From Nitrososphaerota archaeon (GTDB lineage: Archaea; Thermoproteota; Nitrososphaeria; Nitrososphaerales; UBA57): 32,000 nucleotides of DNA. Below, one piece after another: positions 3,847 through 30,213 of the stretch; position 1 is the stretch's first letter; every line of letters begins with the position of its first letter. The notes below the pieces were generated by a model. The model saw only the letters and a program-made list of their open reading frames with translations, ran no database searches and was not told the origin of the DNA. Made by a program: the position numbers and the translations under genes. Location of the stretch: the NCBI GenBank assembly GCA_016871995.1, contig VHBL01000002.1, positions 60,001 through 92,000 of the forward strand, written 5' to 3'.

Positions 3847-3885
3847 TCGCAAGCCATATATCCTATTACCACTGATTAGTAGTTT

Positions 3886-5145: not shown

Positions 5146-5148
5146 GCA

Positions 5149-13300: not shown

Positions 13301-13317
13301 TAGAGAAATGATACGGA

Positions 13318-15074: not shown

Positions 15075-16156
15075 CTTATAGCCGTCCCAGTGTCGAGGTC
15101 GAAAAGGGTCAGCCTTCTTTCGTTGAATCGCATAAAGACTTGGGCTCCAATCTGAGCTCTGAAGTCGACCTTTTCCCGAGCTCTAATGATCGAATTGCCT
15201 ACCTTTATGTCAACTATCATGCTATCACCGAGCGACTCGAGCAGATATACCTCTCCTTTACATGTGGCCCCGTTCACCTGCTCAGCTTTAACCTCTATAT
15301 CCTCAGGTCTAATGCCCACGTGCACCTTCCTACCAGAAGACAGCCCATCTTTCTTAGTAAGAGCCTTGATAGTTATTGGCGGCCGAACCCCACTTAGCTC
15401 GGCCTGTCCATTTGATAATATAGTCGCAGGGATAAGGTTCATCGGGGGATTACCGATAAACGATGCTACCCAAGAGTCCTTTGGTGAGTCGTAAATTGCC
15501 TGAGGGGCATCGATTTGAACAAGTTTTCCATTCCTCAACACTGCAATTTTGTCGGCCATAGTCATCGCCTCTGTCTGGTCATGTGTAACATAGACCAAAG
15601 TCGTTCCTAGGGTTTTTTGTAACTTCTTAAGTTCAGTTCTCATTGCAATTCTCATGCTAGCATCGACGCTTGAGAGAGGTTCGTCCATCAAGAAGACATC
15701 TGGCTGCCTTACAATTGCCCTTCCTAACGCGACTCTCTGTTGTTCTCCCCCGCTGAGCTCTTTGGGCTTTCGGTCAAGAATATGCTGTATTCCCAAGAGT
15801 TCTGCCACCTCCTTCACCCTCCTGTCTATATCTGGCTTTGGAGTTTTGCGAACAGTAAGAGGAAAGGCTATGTTATGGAATGCAGTGAGGTGCGGGAAAA
15901 GGGCATAGTTCTGAAAGACAAGCGATATGTTCCTATCGCGAGGCGGAACTCCATTTACCAATTTGCCGTCAAAGTAGACCTCACCCTCGGTCGGAACCTC
16001 TAATCCTGCAATGAGTCTAAGGAGAGTCGTCTTACCTCCTCCCGAAGGCCCTAAGATCGACAGAAATTCCTTGTCGTTTATTTCTAGATTAACACCTTCT
16101 ATGGCTGCAACGTTTCCAAAACGCTTGGTTACATTCTTCAGCGATACGCTGACCAT
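15071..16156 (-). CDS. Carbohydrate-type ABC transporter ATP-binding protein (MalK/UgpC-like)
   Basis: Walker A GPSGGGKTT, signature LSGGEQQRVALGRAIV and Walker B FLMDEPLSSVDA are present, with a C-terminal regulatory (TOBE-like) domain. It converges on the permease gene, and both stops share the palindrome CTAG at 15071-15074. Confidence 0.85.
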   Translation of the reverse strand: MVSVSLKNVTKRFGNVAAIEGVNLEINDKEFLSILGPSGGGKTTLLRLIAGLEVPTEGEVYFDGKLVNGVPPRDRNISLVFQNYALFPHLTAFHNIAFPLTVRKTPKPDIDRRVKEVAELLGIQHILDRKPKELSGGEQQRVALGRAIVRQPDVFLMDEPLSSVDASMRIAMRTELKKLQKTLGTTLVYVTHDQTEAMTMADKIAVLRNGKLVQIDAPQAIYDSPKDSWVASFIGNPPMNLIPATILSNGQAELSGVRPPITIKALTKKDGLSSGRKVHVGIRPEDIEVKAEQVNGATCKGEVYLLESLGDSMIVDIKVGNSIIRAREKVDFRAQIGAQVFMRFNERRLTLFDLDTGTAIS

Positions 16157-16270
16157 TGTCCTTAAGGATATGGCATAGGTTCTTAAGCTTTCACCGAAGA
16201 AATTGCAGTATTCGCTAAAGAAAGATGAACAAAGGATGCCGCAAAGACAATAAAAAAGTTAAAGTAATCG

Positions 16271-16750
16271 ATGCAGATTAGCCCATCTATGGCAACTGCA
16301 AATGCAGGGAAAAAGAGTCCAACAAAGCTGATCATAGGAATTATAGTCCTTGTCGCAGCCGGTGCCGGAGGTTTGCTTCTGTTCTCGCAAGGCCCGGCAG
16401 GCCCTTCAGCGGAGCCTGGAGTCAAGGAATTTCAGATCTTCCTAGTTGAATCAGGACCGAACAGGGCATGGAATCCTAATGAGATAACGGTAAAGCTAGG
16501 GGATAAGGTCAGGCTTAGGATAGTTAACAATGATGCGGAAAATCCTGCCATGCCAACCTATCACAGATTTGTACTTACTGAGTATAATATTGACTCGGGT
16601 GACATATCACCAAACAAAGAGTATGTTGTGGACTTCGTAGCTGATAAGGCAGGAGAGTTCACATGGTTTGACCCAAGACCTGATGAAATGGTCGGAAGGG
16701 AGAATGTCAGACATTCACAAGAAAAAGGGAAACTAATAGTAGAGCCCTAG
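16271..16750 (+). CDS. Membrane-anchored cupredoxin-like domain protein lacking an obvious Cys copper ligand
   Basis: After an N-terminal anchor (LIIGIIVLVAAGAGGLLLF), EITVKLGDKVRLRIVNND...YHRFVLTEYNI...VVDFVADKAGEFTWFDP resembles the cupredoxin beta-sandwich pattern. There is no Cys in the mature domain. Confidence 0.35.
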   Translation: MQISPSMATANAGKKSPTKLIIGIIVLVAAGAGGLLLFSQGPAGPSAEPGVKEFQIFLVESGPNRAWNPNEITVKLGDKVRLRIVNNDAENPAMPTYHRFVLTEYNIDSGDISPNKEYVVDFVADKAGEFTWFDPRPDEMVGRENVRHSQEKGKLIVEP

Positions 16751-17061
16751 AATTAAGCCAACCTAGGCCAATATCAACTAGGCTCACGAGATAAAATATG
16801 CCAAGATGTAGGAATTTCATTAAAAGACATAAATCTAGTGTTAAATGATGTGCAATTTTAGCAGAAAACTGACAGAAATCGTTCTTGGGTATATATTAAA
16901 CAAACGAAGGGGGAATGAGGGTCTTCTCTCCCTCGACGTTTCTGCCAAACCGATGATAGATTTGATTCCCTGTCTAGGGGCGCTCCGCTAATATTCGACA
17001 ACTGACGAAGTTTTTTCTAGTTTTCGGCGCACTTATAGGGAGGAAAATCAGCGGGGCCGTA

Positions 17062-19284
17062 ATGACAAAACAGATAACTCTGTTAAGTCTGATTGTGGCA
17101 ACGATCCTACTGACTTCAACGATACCTGCGTTTTCACAAGCACAAGTTCCAGGCGCAAATTGGGAAATGGCCAATTATGCCACCAATGGTGGCAGTTACA
17201 GTCCGCAGACACAGATAACTAGAGATAACGTACAATATCTAGAGACGAAGTGGGTCTTGCCGTTCCAATTGCTCCCGCAGATAAAAGGAGGCATCTCCAA
17301 CCCAACACCAGGAGCTATGAGCCCCCCGATAATTGTGGATGGCAAAGTCTACGTGGTGAAAAATAGTGGCCACATACTCGCAATAGACGCACAGACAGGT
17401 AAACAGATTTGGATGAGTCAGGGGTACTCCAATGTAAACTGGACAGCTTTTCAAGGGCGGTATCCTTGGATGGCCCCATACGCTGGCCACATCCATGCGA
17501 TGTACCACTATTCGGAAAAGGGCTGGCTCATGGTGAACAACAACTCTTGCTTTGCAAGAGCATGGAATATCAAAGATGGATCAGTAGCATGGGAGATGGG
17601 GCCTGAGCAGCTCTGCGGGACAAATGAGCAGATGGGTAACCCTGTTCTTGCGGCAAGGACTGCGGGGAGGGAAGGTATAGGCTCTCTAGGAAACCAAGGA
17701 TATATGGGCTCAAGGAGCAATCCACCAGCATTCTTGGGTAACATAATGGTCTGGCCATCTACTGGGGTTAGTGGTCAGGGAGGCAGATCAAGTATGATAG
17801 GCTTCGACATGAGCGATCCAAAGAATCCAAGGCAATTATGGAGGACATGGGTAGCGCCTCCAGCTCAAGGAGATCCAAATTGGGCCATTGACCAATGCAA
17901 GATTGCCAATGGAAATGGATGGTACTTCGAAGCGCCAAGGTTCTTCGAAACCCCTGGCTACAAGGCTACAAGGTGCACTGAAGTTCCAGATGATGTAGTA
18001 AGAAATGATTGGATTAACATGATACCAAACACTCCTCACTTCGGGAAGTTGCATACGGCAAGTTCGGTAACTTCCATCTGGGGCCATATGCCACTTGACC
18101 CAGAACTTGGACTAGTATATCTTGGATTTGGTGACTTGGGACCATATCCAAATTCGACATTCAAGTATGGGCCAAATCTGCATGGAAGCGGCTTTGTAGC
18201 GCTCGATGTCAGGACTGGCGCCCTCAAATGGTGGTTCGCAGCTAATCCTCACGATCTATGGGACTATGACTGCTCATGGGGCGGGATACTTGGAGAGGCA
18301 GCTGGTAAGAAGGTCTACATAAAGGCCTGCAAGAACGGAATAGTGTATGTATTGGACAGAGCTACTGGAGAGCCAGTATGGGTCTTTGATTCACCAACGA
18401 ACTGGAGGAGTACTCCAAACTGGAACTATGGTGTTGATAAGTCTGGAAATCCTAGGAGTCCAGATGCATGTTGCAGGATGACAAAGGAGCATATGAGCAA
18501 GCCATGGATGCACTATCCGAGCGAAGCACCAATTATAGGGCCTCAGGCATGGGCCTACATCGAATCAGACATAGCATATGATCCAACAAGAAAAGTGGTG
18601 TATGCAGGCACCTTCAACGCTATGCGGGAGTTGAAAATCACTAATTACAGAGACTTTGGTAACCAAGGCCAAACTACTAAAGCTAACGTGCATCCACACA
18701 ACGCAACTATAAACGCCTATGATATGAACACTGGAAAGATAAAATGGATGTACGGGCCCATTGATGGCGGCGGATTCAGAGGAGGCATTATGACCACTGG
18801 AGGCATGGTGATAGCATACATGAATGATGGGAACATTCACGTCGTCGACGCTGAAACTGGCCAACTGGTACGCAAAATGTTCTTTGGGCATCCTGTAAAT
18901 GTCATGCCGACGATAGGAGCTGACAAGAACGGGAAGTTCAAGCTCTTCATCTATGTAGGGGGCTCAGGCATACAGAGGTTCAACCCCGTTCAGATGGCTG
19001 ATCTGGAAGGCAGCTTGGTAGCATATGGATTGCCCGACAAACTCCCACAGCCTGAAGTAATCACAAAGGAAGTCATCAAGGAAGTAGTCAAAGAAGTACC
19101 AAAGGAAGTCATCAAGGAAGTAGTCAAAGAAGTACCAAAGGAAGTCATCAAGGAAGTAGTCAAAGAAGTACCAAAGGAAGTAACAGTAGAAACTATCAGT
19201 CCTATTTCGTATGCAGCGATAGGAATTGGAGTAGTAATGATAGTCATATCTGGAATACTATTCAGTAGAAGGAAGAAGGCATAG
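17062..19284 (+). CDS. PQQ-repeat beta-propeller protein (quinoprotein dehydrogenase-like), secreted, with a repeat stalk and C-terminal TM anchor
   Basis: A signal-like N-terminus is present. Repeated PQQ-type blades are visible: PIIVDGKVYVVKNSGHILAIDAQTGKQIW, GIVYVLDRATGEPVW, INAYDMNTGKIKWMY, GNIHVVDAETGQLV. The C-terminus is (KEVIKEVVKEVP)x3 followed by IGIGVVMIVISGILFSRRKKA. Confidence 0.7.
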   Translation: MTKQITLLSLIVATILLTSTIPAFSQAQVPGANWEMANYATNGGSYSPQTQITRDNVQYLETKWVLPFQLLPQIKGGISNPTPGAMSPPIIVDGKVYVVKNSGHILAIDAQTGKQIWMSQGYSNVNWTAFQGRYPWMAPYAGHIHAMYHYSEKGWLMVNNNSCFARAWNIKDGSVAWEMGPEQLCGTNEQMGNPVLAARTAGREGIGSLGNQGYMGSRSNPPAFLGNIMVWPSTGVSGQGGRSSMIGFDMSDPKNPRQLWRTWVAPPAQGDPNWAIDQCKIANGNGWYFEAPRFFETPGYKATRCTEVPDDVVRNDWINMIPNTPHFGKLHTASSVTSIWGHMPLDPELGLVYLGFGDLGPYPNSTFKYGPNLHGSGFVALDVRTGALKWWFAANPHDLWDYDCSWGGILGEAAGKKVYIKACKNGIVYVLDRATGEPVWVFDSPTNWRSTPNWNYGVDKSGNPRSPDACCRMTKEHMSKPWMHYPSEAPIIGPQAWAYIESDIAYDPTRKVVYAGTFNAMRELKITNYRDFGNQGQTTKANVHPHNATINAYDMNTGKIKWMYGPIDGGGFRGGIMTTGGMVIAYMNDGNIHVVDAETGQLVRKMFFGHPVNVMPTIGADKNGKFKLFIYVGGSGIQRFNPVQMADLEGSLVAYGLPDKLPQPEVITKEVIKEVVKEVPKEVIKEVVKEVPKEVIKEVVKEVPKEVTVETISPISYAAIGIGVVMIVISGILFSRRKKA
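19069..19176 (+). repeat. Perfect 3 x 36-bp tandem repeat inside the PQQ-propeller gene
   Basis: gaagtcatcaaggaagtagtcaaagaagtaccaaag occurs at 19069-19104, 19105-19140 and 19141-19176 with no mismatch. It is flanked by degenerate partial copies and is in frame (EVIKEVVKEVPK x3). Confidence 0.95.
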
Positions 19285-19305
19285 TACTAGATCGGCAGAT
19301 TAGGA

Positions 19306-19371
19306 GGGGTAGGTGTATGGTTCCATGGGAGATCCATGGACGCTAGCCGAGTCATGAAACACACCTGCCCC
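19306..19371. other. 66-nt nested inverted-repeat element (possible structured RNA or terminator)
   Basis: The outer stem pairs GGGGTAGGTGT (19306-19316) with ACACCTGCCCC (19361-19371): 11 bp including one G-T pair. The inner hairpin is TCCATGG-GAGAT-CCATGGA (19322-19340). The element starts 22 nt after the stop of the PQQ-propeller gene. Confidence 0.35.
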
Positions 19372-20322
19372 ATGCCAATCTTGATTAAGTTTCGAATAGT
19401 TAACCGTTAAGTTTCCTTCAAAACTGATAATCCTTTAGTTAATGGAAATCCCGAACAACCTGCTAGGCAGATTTAATTAATTAGTAATGGTAGAACAATC
19501 AAACAATCTTAAAGTTAACAGCGTAAACGTCAATCATTGACATAGCAGATGTTGACGAGATTCACGAATAGATAAAGAACCTACCGACTTCCGCAGGGGT
19601 ATTTGATAAAGATGACCAATAATAAATCAAGATTAAGGTCAATTCTTAATCATTCGGGTTTCGCTTCGATATAGCTGGATTGGACGTATTGATCTAGGTT
19701 TTCTTCAAACAGACGAACTCTTTCTCTTAGCTTTGATATTCCTTCTTCCCTAGATATAATCACTGTTGATTCGCCCGTCCCCAAAGAGGGGGTGGACTAG
19801 TTCTGGTCTTCTTTAATATTTTGCCAAGGCCAATTCACCTGACTTGCCAAAGATTAGATAGCTCAATAGAGGGCATCTGCTCTGACATAATGGGTTTAAC
19901 AAAACTCGACTGGAATTCTTCGAAATTTTGTACCCGAATGCCAGTAACAATTGGGGTTTCAAGGAAGGTGGGTGCAGTTATGGCTGAAATGGTCACTAGC
20001 ATTGTGTGGACGAATGCCATACTTAGCTTTCCTATTGGCTTTCTACTTGCTGGTTTGATTGTTCTGGTGTCGACTATAGGCGGAACTCCGATTAACTTAG
20101 CTAAGGAGCTCGGCACCCTTGAGCCAGATTCGTAGGAGTTTACTTCTTCCCAGGTTTCTTTGCAGCTTTCTTCTTAGCCATTCCAGACTTAGTTGCGTCC
20201 TGAGTTTATTAGCACAATGAATGATGGATCTATCCTGCTGTCGGGATTGCGATAGTGGCTGTGGTAGTGGCTGCGGTTGTGGTAGTGAGGAAGAAGAGCG
20301 GCTGAGTTCTATTCATACCCTT

Positions 20323-21381
20323 CTATAGATTAACTAGTTGGTTGTTTAGCATAACTTGAAACCTGTTGCTCCGAGCCTCATCTCTTAGGTGCTGAAAGAC
20401 CTTCTCCTTTTTCAAATCTTCTGATTTCAGGTCTGAACCAGTCGTGAGCAGTAACACGGGAATTGGTATAGCCTGCTCAGAGTCCACCTTTACATTTCGC
20501 AGATTTGTGTAAAGAATCATCCTCAGTAAGCCATCTTTGATGTCTTCGAGAGAAGGTAGATGAGATGTTTTGGTGTGCTTTCCCTCGATTAGAAGTATCT
20601 TGCCGTTTTCTCTGCGTGCCTCGTCCACTGTAAAGAAATAATTCCCGCCCAGATAGTTCTTAATGGTTATTGATGCCTTAACTCCTGATAACTTCTCCTT
20701 TGGTTGAACCGTAACTACCTCGCGATTTTGAGCTTTCTCCGCTAGCTCCCGTGATAAAGGCAGGAAAACATCTCTACCTTTGACAAGTTCTGAAATTCTT
20801 TTCCTTGCAGATTCTGCTGAATGCATTTTGATATTTAGAGCATGGGATATGCTGCCGTACGACCGCAAGGCCATATTCGCTAATTCCCCAACCTTGTCAA
20901 TCTGTGTCATATTCCAATGAAGAGCGTCGGATTGGTAATAGAGCAGTTCACCTAATTGTGCCTTTAGATAATCCACATCATACCTCTGGTTCGTGATTTT
21001 GTTCCTATAGTCTGGATTTTTGGTTGCAGATTTGTAGTACGCTATTATCACATATACTCCAAGTAGGCTCATTAACGAAACTGTGTCCCATTGTAGGAAA
21101 TCCCTATCACCGTCTTTGCCTTCGTCCTTGAAAATCGGGATTATCGTAACCTTCTTACCTTGAAAAGTTAATGTATCATAAAGCCTTGCATATGGATAGG
21201 ATCTAGTGCGCTTAGCTGATACCCACCAACTTACAGCGAATATCTTGCCTCCATCCATTTCAAGAAGAAATGATGCGTCTGTCGATAGCGCTCTTGCCAA
21301 TTCGGATAGCGGATATTTGCGGAGCTCTCTTGGCAGTTTCGGTATATACTTTATTCCAGTAATCTCAGCCGTAATCTTCAT
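20323..21381 (-). CDS. Putative type II restriction endonuclease (PD-(D/E)xK-like core)
   Basis: The 352-aa ORF starts 4 nt after the methyltransferase stop on the same strand. The C-terminal FFTVDEARRENGKILLIEGKHTK gives a D...E-x-K spacing typical of PD-(D/E)xK nucleases. No other family was recognised. Confidence 0.5.
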   Translation of the reverse strand: MKITAEITGIKYIPKLPRELRKYPLSELARALSTDASFLLEMDGGKIFAVSWWVSAKRTRSYPYARLYDTLTFQGKKVTIIPIFKDEGKDGDRDFLQWDTVSLMSLLGVYVIIAYYKSATKNPDYRNKITNQRYDVDYLKAQLGELLYYQSDALHWNMTQIDKVGELANMALRSYGSISHALNIKMHSAESARKRISELVKGRDVFLPLSRELAEKAQNREVVTVQPKEKLSGVKASITIKNYLGGNYFFTVDEARRENGKILLIEGKHTKTSHLPSLEDIKDGLLRMILYTNLRNVKVDSEQAIPIPVLLLTTGSDLKSEDLKKEKVFQHLRDEARSNRFQVMLNNQLVNL

Positions 21382-21385
21382 AAAA

Positions 21386-22324
21386 TCAACTGGTAGCTAC
21401 GCTTTCTTTCTGCTTGACAATTTTCTGGAGGCTGGTTCGATAGTGTGCAGCATCAGCTCTTTCAACAATTTCGGTTTTGTCATTTGAGAGAGTAGATTGT
21501 CTGATGCCAAGCTTCTCCGCAATGATAGGTTTCAATTCCAAATCCAGTTCGTAACCGAATGAATTTCTTCCAAGCTCTTTCGCAACTTTCAGCGTCGTTC
21601 CCGAACCTGCAAATGGATCTAAAACATTCTCGCCCACAAATGTAAAGAGCTTGATTAGTCGTCTGGGAATTTCGTCGGGGAAAGCCGCAATACCTTCTTC
21701 TAACCTGCCCTTCATCGGCAATACATTCGTAATTTGCCATGTATCTGGAATCGCTTTCCTTTCACCCGCGATATCGTCCCAAACTGTGAAAGGTATACTC
21801 CTCCCGTTGAACTCTTTAACATCAATCCTAGACGCTTCGACTACTTCAGAGGAAAGTTTCTTCAAATAAGAATAGTCGAACCTGCCCTTCTGAAAAATCA
21901 GAATACTTTCCTGCATGTTATCTGGATAGAAATACATTGGGTATGGATGCTGCAGCAAAACACCGCTTCTTCGACTGATACGAACATATCCCTTGGGCTT
22001 CATCCAAACAATTCTATCCCTATACCTGAATCCAGCTCGCGTCATGATTTTGGTTATGTCAGCAACGACTGGAAATTTTTCTCCGTCTACCAACATGTCA
22101 TCCACCACGAAGCAACATACCCTACCCTGGGCTACAACCCTCTTCAGTTCCTTCGCTACTCCTTTGATGAGGTCTAAGAAATCCTTGTATGTTTTGAAAA
22201 AATCTGGATAATCAAAAGGAGCATTGAAATACGGAGGGGACGTGACCACAAGATGAATGCTATTTTTGGGTAGCTCCTTCATGCTAAGAGCATTACCAAA
22301 TATTACTTTGTGAGCAGTCCCCAT
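21386..22324 (-). CDS. Beta-class N4/N6 DNA methyltransferase (SPPY motif, probably N4-cytosine)
   Basis: Motif IV VVTSPPYFNAPFDY is near the N-terminus and motif I LDPFAGSGTTLKVAKELGRNSFGYELD is near the C-terminus. This is the circular permutation of the N6_N4 MTase (beta) group. Confidence 0.85.
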   Translation of the reverse strand: MGTAHKVIFGNALSMKELPKNSIHLVVTSPPYFNAPFDYPDFFKTYKDFLDLIKGVAKELKRVVAQGRVCCFVVDDMLVDGEKFPVVADITKIMTRAGFRYRDRIVWMKPKGYVRISRRSGVLLQHPYPMYFYPDNMQESILIFQKGRFDYSYLKKLSSEVVEASRIDVKEFNGRSIPFTVWDDIAGERKAIPDTWQITNVLPMKGRLEEGIAAFPDEIPRRLIKLFTFVGENVLDPFAGSGTTLKVAKELGRNSFGYELDLELKPIIAEKLGIRQSTLSNDKTEIVERADAAHYRTSLQKIVKQKESVATS

Positions 22325-22350
22325 ACTATCACTTCTGGCTTTCCTTTTGG

Positions 22351-22357
22351 TATATAA
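22351..22357 (-). promoter_or_regulatory. TATA-like box for the methyltransferase/endonuclease operon
   Basis: Minus-strand TTATATA is centred about 30 nt upstream of the ATG (22324). This implies a leaderless or near-leaderless transcript. Confidence 0.4.
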
Positions 22358-22604
22358 TTGTATGATTCTGCCAAGCAGGCTAGGAAACTTCGCTTCTTAG
22401 AGAGCTTAATCTATCCAGATAATGAATAGTTGATGTGTTGGAAGAGGTATCAATATCGAAAAAGAGGCCTTAGGTTCATCTCTCTTTACCCCACAATTTA
22501 GATAATTTGGCTGGGTCTTCAGAAAGAAACTCGAAAAGGCTACAGGAGTCAGGCTAGGACCATCCTTAAAACAATCCCATGAAACTAGGGGTCAGAATCT
22601 AGGA

Positions 22605-24380
22605 ATGAAATTCTGCCCGGTGTGTAGCAGCCGAATGAAACTCATTGGAGGTACGAGTTTCGTCTGTGTTAGATGCGGAAACAGAGACGTAGGAGAAAGC
22701 CGAGCACGGCAGGAGCCCATTACATTGAGAAATTGTTTTCCGTTCAAATCTGTTAGACCATCTCAGGAGGCCATCCTTAAGGAATTAGAGGCAGTTTTAC
22801 AATCCAAGAAGTTTATCATCCTAGAGGCACCTGTAGGTTTCGGAAAGTCTGCTGTCGCTGTAGCACTCTGCAAATACCTTGGCTCAGCTCACATACTCAC
22901 GGCTACAAAGCAGCTTCAAGATCAATATTCCAGTAATTTCCATTATCCAACGATCAAAGGTAAAGGTAACTTCCAATGCCATGTCAGGACAACATCTGGG
23001 GCTCTATTGCCCTGTAGTATGGGCAGATGCTTGGTCGATTGGGATCTGAACGATTGTCCTCATTACCTATCATTTGAGGAATACAAACAGCACAAGAACA
23101 ACTCTTGCAGTAGAGATTCAAAATGCGAACATCTCAAGGATAGAAAACAATGCACGTACTATGAACAGAAGTGGTACGGCCTTATGAGTCCAGTTGCTGT
23201 CTACAACTATTCTTTTCTCCTTAGCGAGTTGAAGTACGCCAAGAACGTTCCCAAGAAGAAGTTACTGGTATGTGACGAAGCTCACGATCTAGAAAAGCAG
23301 ATAGTTGGTTTCGCATCATTCCAGCTAAAGAAGAGTAACTTGCAGCCATACCATGACGAGCTAAGGCCAGGCGAGGAGTTTGAGATTGCGCATAAAGGTC
23401 AAGACGACCCAGCAGCATGGCTGGATGTATTATCCAATGCGAAGGATCTGTTAGATGAATACCTCGGAATTCATAAGGAAGCTGACGAAGCGCAGGACAA
23501 GGTTGCGGTATGCAAGAACATGCTGGAATCTTTAGAGAGTTGTATGGATAGCATCAAAACGAACAGTACGAATTGGGTAGTCAACAACGTAAAGGTAAAC
23601 GGCAACCTCTCTGTTGAAGAGGTTACTTTTCAGCCATTAAACACCAGTAGTTACACATCACCTCTCTTCGAGATAGCTGATAAGGTTCTGATGATGTCAG
23701 CGACAATCTTTTCTGATGAAAGGCTGTACAAATCGCTTGGAATACTTGCTTCAGAAGCTGCTATCATCAGGGTTCAGGATTCAGCCTTTCCAGTTAAGAA
23801 TAGGCCAATTTACGCTTTGAATACTGCTGCCCTCAACAAAGCAAGCATGGATTCATCGCTCGAGAGTATTGCACTAGCCATTGACAAAATAATGGATCGC
23901 CATGCCAATGAAAGAGGCATTGTACATACGACTTCTTACACGCAGGCCAGGTATATTGTTGGACATGTTTCAGAGCCAAATAGAAAAAGGCTCATTAATA
24001 CAGAAGGCAGTTTTGACAGGTCAATTCTCATAAGGATGCATGGGGCGAGCGATGCTTCAGTCCTTATCTCTCCCAGCCTTCACGAAGGAGTAGATCTGAA
24101 AGATGATTTATCAAGGTTCCAGGTTATTGTGAAAGTGCCATATCCAGATCTTTCGGATAGAAGGACCAAGACTATACTCCAAATGGACAGGGCTTGGTAT
24201 GATTGGCAGACTGCCCAAAGGCTCGTACAAACCTATGGAAGAAGTGTTAGGAGTGAAACAGATCATGCAATTACATATGTCCTCGATTCGAACTTTACAA
24301 GATTTGTTAATACAAACAGGGACCTGTTCCCCAAGTATTTTCTTGATGCGATAAAAGTTGGGGAACCTTTCAGGAATTAG
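22605..24380 (+). CDS. XPD/Rad3/DinG-family (SF2, DEAH) helicase with N-terminal zinc ribbon and Cys-rich putative Fe-S insert
   Basis: The N-terminus is CPVCSSRMKLIGGTSFVCVRCGN. Walker A is EAPVGFGKS. A Cys cluster lies between motifs I and II (FQCH...LPCSMGRC...DCPHY...C...C...C). Further motifs are the DEAH box VCDEAHDL, MSATI, VHTTSY, SPSLHEGVDLKDD and motif VI QTYGRSVRSETDHA. Confidence 0.8.
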   Translation: MKFCPVCSSRMKLIGGTSFVCVRCGNRDVGESRARQEPITLRNCFPFKSVRPSQEAILKELEAVLQSKKFIILEAPVGFGKSAVAVALCKYLGSAHILTATKQLQDQYSSNFHYPTIKGKGNFQCHVRTTSGALLPCSMGRCLVDWDLNDCPHYLSFEEYKQHKNNSCSRDSKCEHLKDRKQCTYYEQKWYGLMSPVAVYNYSFLLSELKYAKNVPKKKLLVCDEAHDLEKQIVGFASFQLKKSNLQPYHDELRPGEEFEIAHKGQDDPAAWLDVLSNAKDLLDEYLGIHKEADEAQDKVAVCKNMLESLESCMDSIKTNSTNWVVNNVKVNGNLSVEEVTFQPLNTSSYTSPLFEIADKVLMMSATIFSDERLYKSLGILASEAAIIRVQDSAFPVKNRPIYALNTAALNKASMDSSLESIALAIDKIMDRHANERGIVHTTSYTQARYIVGHVSEPNRKRLINTEGSFDRSILIRMHGASDASVLISPSLHEGVDLKDDLSRFQVIVKVPYPDLSDRRTKTILQMDRAWYDWQTAQRLVQTYGRSVRSETDHAITYVLDSNFTRFVNTNRDLFPKYFLDAIKVGEPFRN

Positions 24381-24430
24381 AATTCTCATACTAGCGTGCG
24401 CTGCATGTTAACAATCATTACTATTTTATC

Positions 24431-24448
24431 TATAAAAAATTTTTAATA
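24431..24448 (+). promoter_or_regulatory. AT-rich TATA-like region upstream of the AbiEi-like gene
   Basis: TATAAAAA (24431-24438) and TTTTAATA (24441-24448) lie 35-45 nt upstream of the ATG at 24480. Confidence 0.3.
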
Positions 24449-24479
24449 GATGCTATTTGCACATAATGCTGGATAACAT

Positions 24480-25187
24480 ATGGTAAGTATCTATGGTACT
24501 GAAGGGCAACTTCTTGAGCATCTAGCCCTCCATGGACAGCTCAGCATTAGCCAACTCAAACGGGAGTCTGGTTTATCATATCCCACCGTATTTTACAGTA
24601 CTTCTTCCATTCCTATAGTTTCTTTCGAGAAAATAGGTAAAGAAAAGAAAGCGAGGATTAGAGATGATGTCATCGATATCGTCTATCCTTTTCTAATATC
24701 TATGCAAACTAGCAAGGAGAAGAGGGTGCAACTGGCGATAGCCTATCTCGCCAGAAAAGGACTTGATAAGCCGCTAATCGGCGGCGAGCTAGCTCTTCAG
24801 ATGCAGCTATATGTAAAGGATGCGGAACCTGATCCTCAAGTCGAAATTAGGACAAGCCATCCCTCAAAGCTTCGCAATTATCTTAAGAAAGCTCTACAAG
24901 GTAAGATCTGCACAGAACTACTATCAAGTATACAAATAGTCCGCGATAGCTACCTGTCACCTGCAACACGCATGGGACTGATATCGGTATCGAAGCCTGA
25001 AAAACTACTAGTTGATGCTATAGCCGAACATAAACCAGCAGTATTAATTGAGAATATTGCAGAAGCGATTGTAAACTCTTCACGAGCGATTAATACCAAA
25101 TTGCTAGAGTCATATGCTGGGATGCGGGGCGTCTTGAAAGAAACACAAAATGAAATAAAGAAAGCGCAGGAGTCTGGCTTCCCATAG
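24480..25187 (+). CDS. AbiEi-like antitoxin/transcriptional regulator (N-terminal wHTH)
   Basis: The N-terminal LLEHLALHGQLSISQLKRESGLSYPTV is a wHTH. The C-terminal GLISVSKPEKLLVDAIAEHKP...LLESYAGMRG resembles the AbiEi C-terminal domain pattern (vS-pE-tLlDll ... l-yA). It is followed by an AbiEii-like ORF. Confidence 0.5.
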   Translation: MVSIYGTEGQLLEHLALHGQLSISQLKRESGLSYPTVFYSTSSIPIVSFEKIGKEKKARIRDDVIDIVYPFLISMQTSKEKRVQLAIAYLARKGLDKPLIGGELALQMQLYVKDAEPDPQVEIRTSHPSKLRNYLKKALQGKICTELLSSIQIVRDSYLSPATRMGLISVSKPEKLLVDAIAEHKPAVLIENIAEAIVNSSRAINTKLLESYAGMRGVLKETQNEIKKAQESGFP

Positions 25188-25222
25188 TTTCAAACAGTCA
25201 GATACGTCAGATTGCCCAGAAG

Positions 25223-25549
25223 TTGGGCTTTAACGAAGCGTTTGTCGAGAGAGAATATCACCTTATGGTGACTATCGAAGATCTCCGTCAGAGGGGCTTA
25301 ATGAATGAAAACCCACTCTGTTTGGGAGGTGGTCATGGAGCTAGGGCGTATCTGCCTGTGGACCTCCAGCGATTCAGTATTGATTTGGATTTCTATTCAA
25401 ATTGTGGGGACATCCATGACATTAAGAATGACCTATCAAAAGTACCAGGTTTCAAGGTCATAGGTTACGGAGAACAGACTGAAGGACGATTCAAGAGGTA
25501 CGACTCATTGCCACCCAAAAGCCTCAAAAATGTACAATTGCTTTCATAA
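25223..25549 (+). pseudogene. AbiEii/AbiGii-family nucleotidyltransferase toxin, N-terminal fragment only (about 108 of an expected 230-300 aa)
   Basis: IAQKLGFNEAFVEREYHLMVTIEDL and CLGGGHGARAYLPVDLQRFSIDLDFYS match the family opening (ia-g-ieKDy...L and GGtAl...R-S-DlDf). The ORF stops at 25549, where it collides with a convergent minus-strand ORF ending at 25544. There is no canonical start upstream of the TTG at 25223. Confidence 0.6.
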
Positions 25550-25840
25550 AAGAGTACAAACGGTCATTATCTCGGCTGCGATTTCTGGAGTGCCAGCTAT
25601 TGCGTCATATCTTCCGGTTCTAGAATTGATCCAATGGATTTTAGGATCCATCAAAAGGCCACGAAGTTCTCCTTCGGAATAGTACCTAGGTTCTTCCTTG
25701 GCGAAATCCTCCTCGTACGTTGTTACTATCCATTCTCTATTTTTAAGGAGCCTTGTTAGTCTACTGATAGCCGTAGAGTCCTTGTTTTCCAGATATTTGC
25801 GAAGGTTCGCCTTGTCCTTACCTTTTTTTAGGCATAGCTT
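25544..25840 (-). CDS. Winged-helix-like ORF with no start codon (98 codons), in the +1 frame of the HerA-like gene 3' end
   Basis: The minus frame is open from 25840 to the TGA at 25546-25544. It reads KLCLKKGKDKANLRKYLENKDSTAISRLTRLLKNREWIVTTYEEDFAKEEPRYYSEGELRGLLMDPKIHWINSRTGRYDAIAGTPEIAAEIMTVCTLL. No ATG/GTG/TTG occurs before codon 63. The helix-turn-helix-wing pattern looks protein-like. Confidence 0.4.
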   Translation of the reverse strand, partial: KLCLKKGKDKANLRKYLENKDSTAISRLTRLLKNREWIVTTYEEDFAKEEPRYYSEGELRGLLMDPKIHWINSRTGRYDAIAGTPEIAAEIMTVCTLL

Positions 25841-27644
25841 TCAGAAAATTCTTCAATATGTCCTCGTTATTTTCTGCGTGGAAGAAGACCGGAATGTTCT
25901 GAGTTGCCGTTGCTTTGAAACTAGTAAGCAACCAGTCCCCATTCTGGAATGAAAGTGTTCTATCCATGAATGCATCATCTATTGCAAACATATCTGATAT
26001 CAATTGCCTATCATATGGTCTGGGCATCGTTGATACAAAGTAGCTGTGCAATTGCTGCAACGCATTAGTATTGAGATTAGCTATTCTTTGGGTGCTTATC
26101 CATCCGTGCAGATGATACTTCCTACCATGTCGTAATAATCTTTCTACAGTTCTGCTTGCCTGATCCGTGCCATCTTCTTTCCTTGTGTCTCGTGGCATAA
26201 ACTCTTGAGCCTCATCAATTATGAAAAGTATTCTAGGAGTCAGAGTGAAACTTCTTTTCCTCTTGCGAAAGACATTTGCTATTACTGATGACGTCTGAAG
26301 CCTAGCATCTTCAGCTTCCGGGAGATTTACTACAAATAGCCTAGGAGAATCCTTCTTGGTCGAGAGCATTTCATCTACAAGGTTATCCCACGTGTACTGT
26401 TCCTCTCCATCTTTCTGGCCGTCCTCGCTTGGATTTCTATCAATAACCTTCTGAAGGCTATCGAAGGTCTTCTTCAAAGAACTGCTAGCAGGTAGATCTT
26501 CAAGTAATGGTTGCACTTGCCGAATAAGCTTTGATGTCCTTGAGTCAAATGAGCTCTCCCGCTCTAATTTGTTAGAATCTAGGAACTCTTCCATCATCTT
26601 GATAATTTCAGGGACAAGGAGCTTACCTTGGACTGCGCCATACTTGTCGTTAAGAGTAGTTGACAGGACATCTATTAATCCTCCATAAGTGCTGAACATT
26701 TTGATTCCTTCCTGTCCAGCCAGAGGCATCTCCACGAATCTGACCTTGTCATCTCTGAACAAAGAAGAGATTTTCTCTACGAATTTATCTTCCAATTCAA
26801 CTAATGATTCTGGAACTGCATGCCTCCTGAAGTATTCTCTTGCAGTATCTTCAGCCTCAGCAAAATTTTCCGCAAATAGTATCCTGCTTGGATATTTGTC
26901 AAGGACATCAAGGATATGGATCCCGTACTCCGAGGAAACATCGAATATCACTATCTTCAGATCTGGAATTACTTGAAGGGCCTTTCTTACAACCATTGCC
27001 GTCATATTCGACTTTCCTGAACCTGTAAAGGCGAAGACTCCAACGTGGTAGTGAACAAGCTTCTCTATGTCGACAGTGAAGGGTATGTTCTCCTCAACAA
27101 CTCCTAGGAGATGTCCAAAGGAATAGTCTTCTTCGTTGGATTTGGGGACATAACAGATCAACTTCTGGATTGATTCTTTGCTCAGTAAATTAACTGTGCT
27201 GCCTGTAAGTGGAGCAAAAGGTTTCTTTTCAAACGCTATCTGATCAGCATTGACCTTCATCACGTAGCCCGTTGGGGCTGCGACGATTTCTATCCAAGTG
27301 CTCTTGGAACCCTTCTCCCATTCATCTTGAATGAGCTCCATGAACTCTTTTCTGATAGTTGCGGGCTGGGATCTATCCAAGGTTAGCATTGAGTAGTGCA
27401 TCGGATAGACATCTGCAATTTCGTAGATAGAGTAGGTATCGTGCGAGCCAAGGGTCTGCACATTGGGTATTGCTACAAGCTGTCCTGCTGAAAGTCTCTT
27501 TATCACGTTGGGCGTGTAATCGCATTCAATTCTAGCAGTTCTGAAAGTGATGGTTGATAGACCATCAGTTGTTGTGCGGGTAGTGGACACAATTTCCCTT
27601 AGCTTTCCTTGGAATTCACCATTAAGATCGTCAAAGACTGGCAA
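25818..27644 (-). CDS. HerA-like (FtsK/HerA superfamily, DUF87-type) ATPase
   Basis: An N-terminal barrel-like region (GQLVAIPNVQ...YSIYEIADVY) is followed by Walker A HVGVFAFTGSGKSN and Walker B RILFIIDEAQEFMP. LLRHGRKYHLHGWISTQRIANL matches eGRK-g-l-l-tQRp of HerA. The start is TTG at 27644, 2 nt after the upstream stop. Confidence 0.8.
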   Translation of the reverse strand: MPVFDDLNGEFQGKLREIVSTTRTTTDGLSTITFRTARIECDYTPNVIKRLSAGQLVAIPNVQTLGSHDTYSIYEIADVYPMHYSMLTLDRSQPATIRKEFMELIQDEWEKGSKSTWIEIVAAPTGYVMKVNADQIAFEKKPFAPLTGSTVNLLSKESIQKLICYVPKSNEEDYSFGHLLGVVEENIPFTVDIEKLVHYHVGVFAFTGSGKSNMTAMVVRKALQVIPDLKIVIFDVSSEYGIHILDVLDKYPSRILFAENFAEAEDTAREYFRRHAVPESLVELEDKFVEKISSLFRDDKVRFVEMPLAGQEGIKMFSTYGGLIDVLSTTLNDKYGAVQGKLLVPEIIKMMEEFLDSNKLERESSFDSRTSKLIRQVQPLLEDLPASSSLKKTFDSLQKVIDRNPSEDGQKDGEEQYTWDNLVDEMLSTKKDSPRLFVVNLPEAEDARLQTSSVIANVFRKRKRSFTLTPRILFIIDEAQEFMPRDTRKEDGTDQASRTVERLLRHGRKYHLHGWISTQRIANLNTNALQQLHSYFVSTMPRPYDRQLISDMFAIDDAFMDRTLSFQNGDWLLTSFKATATQNIPVFFHAENNEDILKNFLKAMPKKR

Positions 27645-27646
27645 GG

Positions 27647-29458
27647 TTAACTCTTCCTCCCCGCTTCAATCTTGGACCTGTAGTCTCTAAACCTGCTGGA
27701 GAACAATACTTGCTGATCCAAATCTGATCTGCTCATTTCTAACGCTACAACTGCAAGATATGCCTCCCTATTCTGGCCCAAGTTGGCTTTCGCTTTCTTA
27801 TCTGCAAGGAATAATGGATAGTTGTGCCCTATCGCTTCGGGAATAACTTCTTTACTCATTTGTACCAAGATGGCCATGGCAAGGTTAGTCATCTCAGAGC
27901 CCCTCTCGAAGTGCAGGATGGGGCGGATCTTTTCATCGACTTTTGAATCTTCGTTGTGCAGAAGGATTTCATCCCAATGATCGTATGCTGGGTAAGCAGG
28001 CCTGTCATAGCTGAAGACATGGCTTCTAACTGCAGGGTTCTTCTTGCTGCTCCATAGCTGGATGTATGTCTTGACGTACATCCTTTCAGGATAGATGACG
28101 TTCTTGAACGCTCCATTTACTCTGGCCTCGCCTTTTGGTAATGTAGTATCTTTTACAGGTGCCATCGTCTTGAATGCAGCATCAGTTTCTATGGTGTGCC
28201 AAGGAGTTGGAACCTCTGATGAGTTGATGACGCTGTTCATCTGCAGGAGCATCTTATCGCTGCGGAAGTCTGGAATTTTGTGATTGAGTTTGATCTTGCC
28301 TGCGTTTTGTAGAATTGGTATGACCGTCTTGACAAGTTCCGCAGCAGCAATATCCTTGATGAGTCCTATTAGGAGCAAGTTGTCTGTCCACGCTTTTCTC
28401 GTTAGAGCTTGGACGAATATGAGGGTAAGAAAATCAATATCATCTGCAGTTATCCAAAATTCTTGGCCTTTTTTCTTGAATCTAAGTGGATGGTCTCCTT
28501 GAGGATTGAATATATGATCAGCTACGATATGGGCTGCCTCCAGGACTCTATCCCAGTACTTTGATACTCTATCTTTTAGCTTGTAGTTCATGACCTGCTG
28601 GAAGATGTGATGTTCATTTTCCAGCTCACCAAAATCCTTCTGGAGCTTTGAAAACCTGTTCTGGTTTGCACCTAGCCTTCCAATTAGCTGTTGCAAGTTT
28701 AGGAGTTGGCCATCAAAGAGATGTTCGATGGCAGCATACTTGACAAGATGGCTCCTTGGTGCTGGAATTTTGAGCTCTTTGTTTGGTAAGAGCATCCTAG
28801 CAAGTTGAAGATCAAAGTTGTCTATCACCCCATCCTTGGTCTCCATGCCTTCTAGAATGCAGAGATGATCTTCGATTAGGTCTTTGGTGCTCCAGTTCAG
28901 ATGGGCATGATCTCCAGCTATAGTTCTGTCTAGAATGATTATTTTGAGAGCATCGCGTGCTGTTGTTGCTTTGAATGCCAAATAGTACTCTGCAAGGTGC
29001 ATCAGGGCTCCTGGGAGTCTTTGAGGGTCAACTTCAATACCAGATTGTGTCTTCTGGCCGAATATGTTAGCAGCATCTTCTTCTGAAATCGGGATAGCAG
29101 CAGATACAGAGAATTCTGTTCCGAGCTGTTTTGGATCTGAAACTACTATTTCCTTACCGAGAAATTTGATATTACCAGAGTAACCGAATGCCCCTACATA
29201 GAACACTATGAGATCGAGTTGCTGATCTACAGAATCGGTGCCATCGATGGCTATGTATTCAATTTCTTCTTTTCCGAAAAAGGACTCTGCTGTTGAACAT
29301 GCACTCGGAAAGTTTACTCCAAATCGTAGAAGCTGCTTTACGTCTCCTCTAGATTCTTCCAACTGGGCTAACTTTGTCTTGAAGGATTCAAGGAGGAAAC
29401 GTGTAGAACTCTGAACTCCCTCTATCGTACGTGACTCTGGAGTGAAGGGAGAAGACAT
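27647..29458 (-). CDS. Large NurA-like (RNase H-fold nuclease) protein, 603 aa
   Basis: YIAIDGTDS (NurA motif a-DGS), IIILDRTIAGD (l-lDGsl-like) and the C-terminal GHNYPLFLADKKAK (yP-L-aH/D-a) are visible. It sits immediately upstream of and is coupled to the HerA-like ATPase. The assignment rests on recalled motifs only. Confidence 0.5.
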   Translation of the reverse strand: MSSPFTPESRTIEGVQSSTRFLLESFKTKLAQLEESRGDVKQLLRFGVNFPSACSTAESFFGKEEIEYIAIDGTDSVDQQLDLIVFYVGAFGYSGNIKFLGKEIVVSDPKQLGTEFSVSAAIPISEEDAANIFGQKTQSGIEVDPQRLPGALMHLAEYYLAFKATTARDALKIIILDRTIAGDHAHLNWSTKDLIEDHLCILEGMETKDGVIDNFDLQLARMLLPNKELKIPAPRSHLVKYAAIEHLFDGQLLNLQQLIGRLGANQNRFSKLQKDFGELENEHHIFQQVMNYKLKDRVSKYWDRVLEAAHIVADHIFNPQGDHPLRFKKKGQEFWITADDIDFLTLIFVQALTRKAWTDNLLLIGLIKDIAAAELVKTVIPILQNAGKIKLNHKIPDFRSDKMLLQMNSVINSSEVPTPWHTIETDAAFKTMAPVKDTTLPKGEARVNGAFKNVIYPERMYVKTYIQLWSSKKNPAVRSHVFSYDRPAYPAYDHWDEILLHNEDSKVDEKIRPILHFERGSEMTNLAMAILVQMSKEVIPEAIGHNYPLFLADKKAKANLGQNREAYLAVVALEMSRSDLDQQVLFSSRFRDYRSKIEAGRKS

Positions 29459-29473
29459 TTGAAGGCACTTGCG

Positions 29474-30100
29474 TCAAGATATATGAGGCGCGGTTGTTAA
29501 ACTATTTGGATATGGAACAATCTTTGTCTCATGATCTTTATTGGAATAGTAGGCGTATTTTTCAAAATAAGGCGCGAGATCTACTCCATTCTGACGTATG
29601 ATGAATTTGCCGCCAACCTTGTCTATATTGAAGGTGTATCCTTTTCTATCAGGCCAGTAGCGCGGGGGAACCTTAGAGAACGGAATTACGAATGTATCGG
29701 CCGTAGTCTTTTCGTGATAGACTACGAAGCAATTTTCACCTTGCCTTGAAGCATCTTCCATGAACTCGACTTTCTTCCCGTCTAGACCTATCCAGCGGGC
29801 TTCTAACGTAACATGTCTTCCTCCTACTGCGATTGTACCATGAACTTTGTTTGGTCCATCTAGAGAGAAAGTTTGTCTCCCAAAGTGTTTGGGTAAAAGT
29901 TTGTAACCCTTTTTTGTAGCTTCGTCCTGCAGTTTGTCTATTATTTGCTCAACATCCAGGTACCGACCCTTTCTTGAAATTCCAGATGTAGTACTTAGTA
30001 CAGCGGCAGATCCGATCGGTCTAGTACTTTGTACTGGAGCCGGTGGTTGAACTGTACTATCTAAGATCCTAACAGGCGTTCCACGCCTGTGTAGGGAATC
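29474..30100 (-). CDS. Hypothetical protein, first gene of the NurA/HerA-like cassette; 209 open codons but no canonical start before the ATG at 29761
   Basis: The track ORF (95 aa, ATG 29761) continues upstream in frame to 30100. That stretch looks protein-like (GRYLDVEQIIDKLQDEATKKGYKLLPKHFGRQTFSLDGPNKVHGTIAVGGRHVTLEARWIGLDGKKVEF) and contains no in-frame ATG/GTG/TTG. The stop is 15 nt before the NurA-like ATG. Confidence 0.5.
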   Translation of the reverse strand, partial: DSLHRRGTPVRILDSTVQPPAPVQSTRPIGSAAVLSTTSGISRKGRYLDVEQIIDKLQDEATKKGYKLLPKHFGRQTFSLDGPNKVHGTIAVGGRHVTLEARWIGLDGKKVEFMEDASRQGENCFVVYHEKTTADTFVIPFSKVPPRYWPDRKGYTFNIDKVGGKFIIRQNGVDLAPYFEKYAYYSNKDHETKIVPYPNSLTTAPHIS

Positions 30101-30123
30101 CTATTTAAGAACTCAAATAGTAG

Positions 30124-30213
30124 CGGGCCCGGTGGGATTTGAACCCACGACCTTCGGCTCCGGAGGCCTGCGCTGAAGAATCAACGCCCTGATCCATGCT
30201 AGGCTACGGGCCC
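30124..30213 (-). tRNA. tRNA-Arg (anticodon CCG) with a ~14-nt non-canonical insertion/intron
   Basis: The minus strand reads GGGCCCG-TA-GCCT-AGCATGGATCA-GGGC-G-TT[GATTCTTCAGCGCA]GGC-CTCCGGA-GCCGA-AGGTC-GTGGG-TTCAAAT-CCCAC-CGGGCCC-G. The acceptor, D and T arms are canonical. The anticodon stem TTGGC/GCCGA forms only if 14 nt are removed. The loop CTCCGGA gives anticodon CCG. No CCA is encoded. Confidence 0.75.

Follow-up and report, generated by a model that had tools for sequence, protein, structure and literature searches.

How does a cluster of unrelated defence genes come to stand directly beside a tRNA gene, and is it an integrated element, the joined remains of several, or no island at all? 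The question is raised by a stretch of 32,000 nucleotides (the window; GenBank assembly GCA_016871995.1, contig VHBL01000002.1, positions 60,001 to 92,000) from an uncultured, mesophilic member of the Nitrososphaeria (Thaumarchaeota). Between a gene for a PQQ-propeller protein and a gene for tRNA-Arg(CCG), the window holds a type II restriction–modification (R-M) pair, a DinG/XPD-family helicase gene, remnants of a prokaryotic Argonaute (pAgo) gene and of an AbiE toxin–antitoxin pair, and a gene for the ATPase HerA with that of a predicted nuclease partner. A preliminary description, drawn from the sequence alone, had seen here an accessory island extending from 19285 to the tRNA gene (30124–30213). 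The features that it listed beyond the end of the PQQ gene at 19284 were all recovered where it had placed them, by searches with Pfam, PADLOC and Rfam and, for the NurA-like protein, by a structure model.

The account that we favour, with moderate confidence, is that the segment from about 19611 to 30100 is a composite and now immobile block of defence genes, produced by several insertions, deletions and rearrangements at a site that is both a hotspot and a synteny breakpoint. The block is not a single integrated element, since it has no integrase and no attachment (att) repeats and its genes are cut at the ends as well as inside. Nor is it a simple insertion, for no relative has the two flanks side by side; it lies at a synteny breakpoint. 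What it does display are the marks of a defence or flexible genomic island, namely unrelated defence systems within 10.5 kb and a content that varies between close genomes. The mosaic picture of the preliminary description, of an old, immobilized island or of repeated insertions at a hotspot, is borne out by three genes cut at junctions, by the varied sequences downstream of the tRNA gene in relatives, and by four genes that are singletons at 90% identity.

The comparison sequences are metagenomic contigs throughout. Genes of the window occur in identical form on JGI, ENA and Logan contigs of one metagenome series, the longest of which measures 164.7 kb. The source metagenomes are from a lake (JGI 3300020084, 3300020193 and 3300020200; ENA ERZ27247963; SRR16108667 to SRR16108675). 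For the HAD phosphatase that follows the tRNA gene, the best genome match is a metagenome-assembled genome (MAG) named "uncultured Nitrosopumilales archaeon" (CAZXXP01), at 84% amino-acid identity, and the second is a Nitrosocaldus MAG at 48%.

The left junction and an alternative allele

Contigs that carry the PQQ flank terminate at 19610 or 19547, and contigs that carry the island begin at 19470, 19484 or 19581, in assemblies with k values of 141, 127 and 31, respectively. The starts at three k values resolve to a single branch point at 19609/19610. A near-identical genotype, locus L027, differs from the window after the same place. From 15742 to 19610 the two are separated by two mismatches and one indel of a 36-nt repeat; the remaining four of six mismatches fall within the next 45 nt, homology stops at 19655, and the sequences beyond are unrelated. 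The true left boundary of the block is 19610/19655 and not 19285, where the preliminary description had placed it; this puts the breakpoint 326–371 nt downstream of the PQQ gene.

Past the junction, L027 continues with genes for a zf_C2HC zinc-finger protein, a 425-aa tyrosine integrase (Phage_integrase), elongation factor 2 (EF-2) and SRP54. The integrase gene lies about 1 kb from the left junction that L027 shares with the window, and the allele shows that integrase-carrying DNA uses, or abuts, this junction. The earlier statement that no integrase is present is accordingly true of the window but not of this alternative allele. On the L027 contig (JGI 3300020084, Ga0194110_10009537) the 207-aa zf_C2HC protein and the integrase are encoded at 3879–6014, between the PQQ flank and the 3′ end of the EF-2 gene, with the integrase start codon 57 nt from the EF-2 stop codon; a minimal integrative element may consist of these two genes. 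The surroundings of the integrase yielded no convincing att repeat: a 14-nt imperfect repeat and an 11-nt repeat there are put down to chance.

Contigs from several independent assemblies also break within the left flank, at 15742, 16923, 17009 and 17288–17292, the first of these being the start of both L027 and a Logan contig. Such shared breaks point to recombination tracts or to a population in which closely related genotypes are mixed. By themselves, contig ends count for little as marks of the island's boundaries because the mixed population also breaks contigs at 15742, 16923, 17009 and 17288.

The PQQ gene that precedes the junction contains a perfect 36-nt tandem repeat (3.3 copies, 19064–19181), which codes for KEVIKEVVKEVP units ahead of the C-terminal membrane anchor. 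Its copy number is polymorphic in the population: the L027 protein (P0272), 98% identical to that of the window, has one 12-aa repeat fewer (728 against 740 aa). The secreted PQQ-propeller proteins form a multi-copy family, seen in the window, in L014, L017 and L018 and in protein P0304, with a paralog on the same 164.7-kb source contig and three paralogs on one 174.6-kb contig of another MAG. In relatives these paralogs adjoin variable regions, next to tRNA-Arg in L014 and L017 and next to the HerA–NurA pair in L018.

The tRNA-Arg edge

At the other edge the block ends 23 nt from the 3′ end of the tRNA gene. ARAGORN left this tRNA untyped; by eye, its anticodon stem holds a 14-nt non-canonical intron, without which the tRNA is 76 nt long with the loop CUCCGGA, indicating Arg(CCG). 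The same tRNA and intron are kept in five related contigs. The HAD phosphatase gene and then argS follow, and core genes resume after the tRNA as the preliminary description had said. An alignment of six lineages is conserved through tRNA-Arg and unrelated directly past its 3′ end, with at least five different downstream sequences. In L014/L015 the tRNA is followed by a VapBC pair, a membrane-protein gene and a CopG-like gene, and in L017 only by a disrupted CopG-like gene 94 nt away; in both cases a PQQ paralog comes next, in opposite orientation and 47% identical over the part covered by L017. That the PQQ gene had been inverted with respect to L014 and L017 was considered and rejected, the copies being paralogs of a multi-copy family (47% and 33% identity, against 84% for HAD). 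Seven short-k contigs begin at 30120–30123.

The frame adjacent to the tRNA in the window is a gene that has lost its beginning. Its only homolog is a 230-aa protein, P0121, which is 72% identical and has an N-terminal ribbon–helix–helix (RHH) domain of the RHH_12 family. In a tblastn comparison, residues 42–223 of P0121 align to positions 30094–29552; the first 41 or so codons, the RHH part, are gone, and there is no ATG, GTG or TTG before 29761. The break lies 23–30 nt from the tRNA end. Structure prediction for P0121 and the truncated gene reached a pLDDT (AlphaFold's per-residue confidence) of only 37.

The two edges taken together invite another explanation, which we regard as unlikely: that the island is a hybrid, made by one rearrangement between two integrated elements, an integrase-bearing one on the PQQ/EF-2 side and one on the tRNA-Arg side. 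Recombination, homologous or catalysed by the integrase between inverted sites, would have joined the left end of the first element to the right part of the second and left the integrase at a reciprocal junction elsewhere in the genome. Such an event would explain in one step why integrase and matching att repeats are both absent. It finds support in L027, where the same left junction leads to a tyrosine integrase and a different core flank (EF-2, SRP54), and in the divergence of 19611–19655, about 9% against about 0.05% in the flank, as expected of the ends of two related elements. The reciprocal junction has not been observed, however, and island contigs always enter from the PQQ flank, which speaks against another left neighbour in these samples. 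A single event would also leave unexplained the internal truncation of AbiEii and pAgo and the replacement of the gene upstream of NurA, and L027 may be nothing more than a relative at greater distance that carries a recombination tract.

Integrase, attachment sites and composition

Searches for an integrase gave a consistent null result. No integrase or recombinase domain was found in any ORF of the island or in the six-frame translations of 19285–20330, and a tblastn search with the L027 integrase over 41 kb gave no match (E > 2). Smith–Waterman alignment of the tRNA region against the island reached a best score of 12.5, within the range of shuffled sequences (11–16), and no direct repeat of at least 8 nt links the tRNA 3′ half and trailer (30090–30175) to 19285–20330, where 1.25 would be expected by chance. 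The lack of a recombinase gene and of a second copy of the tRNA 3′ half, noted by eye in the preliminary description, has thus held up.

The compositional deviation for which that description had proposed a check is missing. The island has a G+C content of 43.0% and the flanks one of 44.6%, the windows of the flanks ranging from 41 to 48%; the tetranucleotide distance to the flank profile is 0.0187 for the island against 0.0175, the sole outlier being the repeat-rich PQQ gene; and the distances of the island genes in third-position G+C and relative synonymous codon usage, gene by gene, lie within the range of flanking genes. This fits exchange among close relatives or long residence, though it is no positive evidence. 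The preliminary description had named two observations that would tell against an island, namely a composition like that of the flanks and synteny of the whole block in all related genomes. The first was found and the second was not.

Of the features of a strict tRNA-targeted integrated element, only the position at the 3′ end of a tRNA gene is seen here; integrase, att, empty site and deviant composition are wanting. That the block is nevertheless a single integrative element, cryptic or the remnant of a provirus, which entered at the tRNA-Arg 3′ end by means of a tyrosine integrase and whose integrase and distal att have since decayed, is quite improbable. The location directly downstream of a tRNA 3′ end is the usual thaumarchaeal target, R-M, toxin–antitoxin and phage-type helicase genes (phrog_2488, 8.7e-102) are typical mobile cargo, and 6 of 74 surveyed thaumarchaeal elements have no recognizable att or target-site duplication (PMC6563490). 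Yet no remnant of an integrase and no repeat of at least 8 nt can be seen, the composition is not deviant, and the tRNA-proximal end cuts a gene, unlike site-specific integration. Moreover, HerA–NurA, 40% of the block, is found elsewhere in close relatives, at identities no lower than those of housekeeping genes (87–91% as compared with 84% for HAD), and neither the helicase nor the truncated gene has close relatives in IMG/VR.

Scarcely credible, and already disfavoured, is the view that there is no island here and that this is an ordinary, vertically inherited segment with defence-type genes: its composition and codon usage are those of the flanks and HerA–NurA is conserved across the phylum, but the arrangement occurs in no relative, four genes have no counterpart at 90% identity outside this population, three are truncated at junctions, and a near-identical genotype differs after 19655.

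Genes of the block

The features of the block and its edges are collected in Table 1. The R-M pair, the XPD/DinG-like helicase and the AbiE pair with its truncated toxin, as listed in the preliminary description, are borne out by Pfam and PADLOC matches. Its NurA/HerA-like cassette is confirmed for HerA by DUF87 and PADLOC and for NurA by AlphaFold and Foldseek only, and its 1 kb or so of fragments proved to contain one recognizable piece.

Table 1. Features between the PQQ-propeller gene and tRNA-Arg, in window coordinates
Feature	Position	Strand	Evidence or remark
PQQ-propeller ORF	17062–19284		Pfam PQQ 8.8e-41
PQQ 3′ flank, shared frame, outside island	19285–19610		Identical in L011, L012, L030, L031; near-identical in L027
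45-nt junction segment	19611–19655		Common to L027 but about 9% diverged; 4 of 6 L027–window mismatches
Non-coding or fragment zone	19656–19820		Six-frame translations: no Pfam or PADLOC match
pAgo remnant, last ~58 PIWI residues	19821–20135	+	Homology 19821–19998; PADLOC pAgo_I 5e-18, profile positions 385–442 of 455
Type II restriction endonuclease, apparently intact	20323–21381	−	PADLOC REase_II PDLC03572 3.5e-101, residues 1–351
N6/N4 DNA methyltransferase	21386–22324	−	Pfam N6_N4_Mtase 4.2e-39 (residues 23–269); PADLOC MTase_II 1.7e-66
DinG/XPD-family helicase	22605–24380	+	Pfam Helicase_C_2, DEAD_2; PADLOC typeIV_DinG 1.4e-65; phrog_2488 8.7e-102
AbiEi-like antitoxin/regulator, weak	24480–25187	+	PADLOC AbiEi 3.9e-4; Pfam DUF6577 0.0026, below gathering score
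AbiEii toxin fragment	25190–25549	+	PADLOC AbiEii 3.7e-6, profile positions ~3–88 of 260–307
HerA-type hexameric ATPase/translocase, intact	25818–27644	−	Pfam DUF87 2.7e-14; PADLOC HerA "Type III coevolved" 6.3e-31
603-aa NurA-fold protein, predicted nuclease	27647–29458	−	AlphaFold and Foldseek
5′-truncated RHH-protein gene	29474–30100	−	Corresponds to residues 42–223 of 230-aa P0121
tRNA-Arg(CCG), right boundary	30124–30213	−	Rfam tRNA 44.4 bits

That piece, the sole recognizable feature of 19285–20330 in six-frame scans, is the end of a pAgo gene, 5′-truncated at about 19821, whose PIWI homology runs on into an unrelated hydrophobic tail. Nothing of the remainder was recognizable upstream in six-frame scans with Pfam and PADLOC, and the MID-PIWI protein and partner that a pAgo system comprises are not present. 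Between the remnant and the restriction endonuclease gene lies a 12-nt tandem repeat, TGCGGTAGTGGC (2.9 copies, 20248–20282).

The endonuclease and methyltransferase genes, both full length, on the same strand and 4 nt apart, together qualify as a type II R-M system; the methyltransferase translation shows SPPY and FxGxG motifs. To judge from these matches, the pair should restrict unmethylated incoming DNA.

The helicase has full-length homologs, at 27–30% identity, in Bacillus phage G and in Serratia and Pseudomonas phages, and its phage matches also include records of Salmonella phages and Halorubrum viruses. By homology it is assigned to a clade common in large phages, and it may be a leftover of a mobile element rather than a defence gene. 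Its N-terminus (22605–22690) carries a zinc ribbon, CPxC...CxxC, with a weak match to transcription factor S4 (6e-4), and gene callers place its start differently, giving 581 or 591 aa. A viral origin of the block was rejected, as a search of IMG/VR found no close relative of the helicase, of the truncated tRNA-adjacent gene or of the L027 integrase.

Of the AbiEii toxin only the N-terminal 85 or so residues are left, without a proper start codon and with the 3′ part deleted. The gene is cut before 25549, and from there to the HerA stop codon the distance is only about 270 nt. The full-length AbiEii nucleotidyltransferase that, with AbiEi, makes up an AbiE system is therefore lacking.

Clustered at 90% identity among some 15 billion proteins, those of the endonuclease, methyltransferase, helicase and AbiEi genes are all singletons, with no relative outside this population. 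The 6 kb or so from 19.6 to 25.8 kb are the truly accessory, strain-specific part. The preliminary description had called the whole block accessory; this stands for R-M, helicase and AbiEi, but not for HerA–NurA, which is conserved at 57–91% in Nitrososphaerota.

HerA and its NurA-fold partner

The HerA protein matches HerA chains in the PDB, and its translation contains Walker A (GSGKS) and Walker B (IIDEA) motifs. It scores far below the NCBIfam cut-offs for both repair HerA and anti-phage HerA. Its cluster at 90% identity has nine members from several sources, the window copy included.

The adjacent 603-aa protein has no match in Pfam (E ≤ 0.01), PADLOC, NCBIfam or PHROGs, and neither its single sequence nor a profile of 21 sequences matches the NurA sequences of the PDB. 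An AlphaFold model built on the alignment of its homologs (pLDDT 77.5; predicted TM-score, pTM, 0.80) gives a different result: the top ten Foldseek matches in the PDB are all NurA (E from 7e-8 to 1.4e-5, probability 1.0), among them 3TAI, 3TAL, 3TAZ, 2YGK and the Thermococcus kodakarensis HerA–NurA complex 9X1L-N. The TM-scores are low, 0.33–0.57 when normalized to the target, so that the assignment holds at the level of the fold only, for a much enlarged relative. The model thus identifies the protein as a predicted NurA-fold nuclease and the partner of HerA. Asp72, Glu126 and Asp177 are invariant in 21 homologs and lie in the model on β1, at the start of the next helix and on β4, respectively, which would suit the active-site positions of an RNase H-like fold.

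The family is sizeable. At E ≤ 0.001, 304 clusters, formed at 50% identity, were retrieved from 1.84 billion representatives; the best 120 homologs are all about 600 aa long, 57–88% identical, and from Nitrososphaerota MAGs. The HerA gene follows the NurA-like homolog in all eight related loci (L018, L019, L020, L028, L029 and L039–L041), and neither in the window nor in these eight contexts is there an mre11 or rad50 gene. The pair accounts for 40% of the block and is conserved across Nitrososphaerota at 57–91% identity, in other contexts than here. In the closest relative (91% for HerA and 87% for the NurA-like protein, above the 84% for HAD) its neighbours are a different PQQ paralog (33%), the gene of a thermosome and an unrelated methyltransferase gene (26%), and there is no tRNA. 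In two distant genomes, L028 and L029 (57–60% identity), it occupies one shared, housekeeping-type neighbourhood, with genes for thermosome, pterin-4a and NTP_transf_5 proteins on one side and EamA, CoA-binding, HxlR, PNPOx and HtrA proteins on the other. Because of this conservation and these stable neighbours in two distant genomes, the pair is not ordinary accessory cargo.

In four close relatives, L018 and L039–L041, homology to the window covers only 25816–29445, and the gene upstream is a different, 180-aa ORF that is absent from the window. A further junction accordingly lies at 29459–29473, the upstream edge of the pair. That homology stops sharply where the genes do would likewise suit a relocatable cassette. 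In L040 and L039 a CRISPR array with the 37-nt repeat GTTGCAGAAGCTAGAGTCATAAAATGACGATTGAAAG and a period of 73–74 (at least five copies at 40–369 in L040, one copy at 41–77 in L039) stops some 240 nt upstream of the pair, whose NurA-like protein there shows 88% identity; between array and pair only the C-terminal 32 residues of the usual 180-aa ORF are left.

What might the pair do? In the T. kodakarensis complex the HerA hexamer feeds duplex DNA into a NurA dimer, which cuts both strands (PMC12977600). By analogy, the present pair would feed DNA ends through the HerA hexamer to a NurA dimer and degrade them, and may act in repair or defence. It is conceivable, if on the doubtful side, that the NurA-like and HerA proteins form a distinct two-gene module, widespread in Nitrososphaerota, for defence or CRISPR-linked DNA degradation, not, or not only, for end resection. 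A hint of a defence role comes from the neighbours: R-M, AbiE and pAgo remnants here, the unrelated methyltransferase in the closest relative, and the CRISPR array in the loci just described. No Pfam, NCBIfam or PADLOC model describes the two as a pair.

Proposed assembly of the block

If the block is composite, it would have been put together from at least five separately derived pieces through insertions, deletions and one or more rearrangements. They would comprise a pAgo system now reduced to its last 58 codons, a type II R-M pair specific to the strain, a phage-type DinG/XPD helicase, an AbiE toxin–antitoxin pair whose toxin was cut off, the lineage-wide HerA–NurA pair, moved in from another context, and the beheaded RHH-domain gene that abuts the tRNA. 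The pieces would have accumulated and eroded at a hotspot set by the 3′ end of tRNA-Arg, the other edge being the breakpoint past the PQQ gene, and an integrase that once acted here would have disappeared or stayed behind at another junction. What remains of pAgo, AbiEii and the RHH gene is presumably dead. The identities of the genes, the three truncations, the lack of integrase, att and synteny, and the alternative allele are observed; the order of these events, like the present activity of the genes, we infer.

Several observations weigh against such a history. There is no compositional sign of foreign origin, G+C content, tetranucleotides and codon usage all being like those of the flanks. 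No true empty site was recovered, and no relative has PQQ adjoining tRNA-Arg, the arrangement that the preliminary description had proposed to look for; the flanks are not neighbours elsewhere, the PQQ ortholog in L027 being followed by the integrase and EF-2 and relatives having other genes beside tRNA-Arg. Instead of a strict sister strain, L027 may be a relative (about 91% identical) that has a 3.9-kb tract of recent recombination in common with the window. The breaks of short-k Logan contigs at 30123 could reflect, in place of strain variation, a 30-nt repeat that also occurs in another tRNA gene. The match behind AbiEi is weak (3.9e-4), the defence roles of the helicase and of HerA–NurA are putative, and long-range gene order in the relatives is not visible on metagenomic contigs.

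Flanking regions

Genes of ordinary metabolism occupy the first 10 kb of the window and code for MoaE, a GHMP kinase, a PALP enzyme and a branched-chain amino-acid ABC transporter; next come those for ABC transporters, a ParB-HTH protein, a cupredoxin and then the PQQ-propeller protein. No CRISPR array or cas gene was found in the window. A second tRNA gene, missed by ARAGORN and below the gathering score of Rfam (19.7 bits), lies on the minus strand at 664–787. It is about 124 nt long, with the acceptor stem GCGGGGG/CCCCCGC, a CUCAAGA loop like that of Leu(CAA) and a long variable arm, and probably contains at least one non-canonical intron. The 20 nt at 671–690, identical to part of the T-arm region of tRNA-Arg, had been a candidate for a distant att site and were rejected, since they belong to the T-arm of this tRNA-Leu(CAA)-like gene.

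About 1–3.4 kb past the right end of the window, directly after argS, the contig L003 encodes (at 12743–15080) a 553-aa protein and an overlapping 232-aa ORF. The former has a weak match to Pol-beta nucleotidyltransferases and neither is clearly annotated; they may be another defence or toxin–antitoxin-like pair within the "core" flank.

Relation to known systems

The block belongs to a known kind, the defence or flexible genomic island at a tRNA hotspot, and is not a new type of element. Islands of this kind are the subject of Makarova et al. (2011, 2013), as cited in PMC11472057. Like them, it has R-M, Abi/toxin–antitoxin, pAgo and helicase–nuclease genes directly downstream of a tRNA, a content that varies between lineages, and broken genes. 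Unlike them, it has no integrase, att duplication or deviant composition, and it lies at a synteny breakpoint rather than being inserted at a conserved site. Most integrated elements of Thaumarchaeota have the 3′ end of a tRNA gene as their target, and their att sites are short, 8–26 bp (Krupovic et al. 2019, PMC6563490).

The start-less frame abutting the 3′ end of tRNA-Arg(CCG) resembles what SSV-type integration would leave as int(C). SSV1 uses this tRNA. A split integrase of that type was rejected nonetheless, the frame being a truncated homolog of an RHH protein with no Phage_integrase or SSV-integrase signal and no att copy.

The HerA–NurA pair shares with the archaeal end-resection complex (3TAI, 2YGK, 9X1M; PMC12977600) the adjacent, co-oriented nurA–herA genes and a DUF87 HerA, and the model of the partner shares with archaeal NurA the predicted fold; its invariant acidic residues would sit at RNase H-like positions. 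It differs in the length of the NurA-like protein, about 600 aa against about 320–430 aa for solved NurA structures, in giving no match to the Pfam NurA sequence model, and, as regards the repair operon, in having no mre11 or rad50 nearby. Paralogs of nurA–herA that are associated with CRISPR have been described from Thermoproteales (Bernick et al. 2012, PMC3396285). Like these, the present pair is distinct from the repair operon and has CRISPR about 240 nt upstream in L039 and L040, and its best PADLOC HerA model is "Type III coevolved"; unlike them, it has no csm6 between its genes and no CRISPR or cas in the window, and its neighbours in L028 and L029 are of the housekeeping type.

Here, then, is a defence cluster without the usual signatures of an island, visible only by comparison with near-identical and related genotypes; island finders based on composition or on integrases would miss it. 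Most of the finding is ordinary, and its most useful by-product is the NurA-fold family paired with HerA: an undescribed family of about 600-aa proteins, with more than 300 clusters at 50% identity, tied to NurA by a structure model alone. If the NurA-like/HerA pair is the end-resection machine of the phylum, or a defence module, it would deserve a family model and biochemistry.

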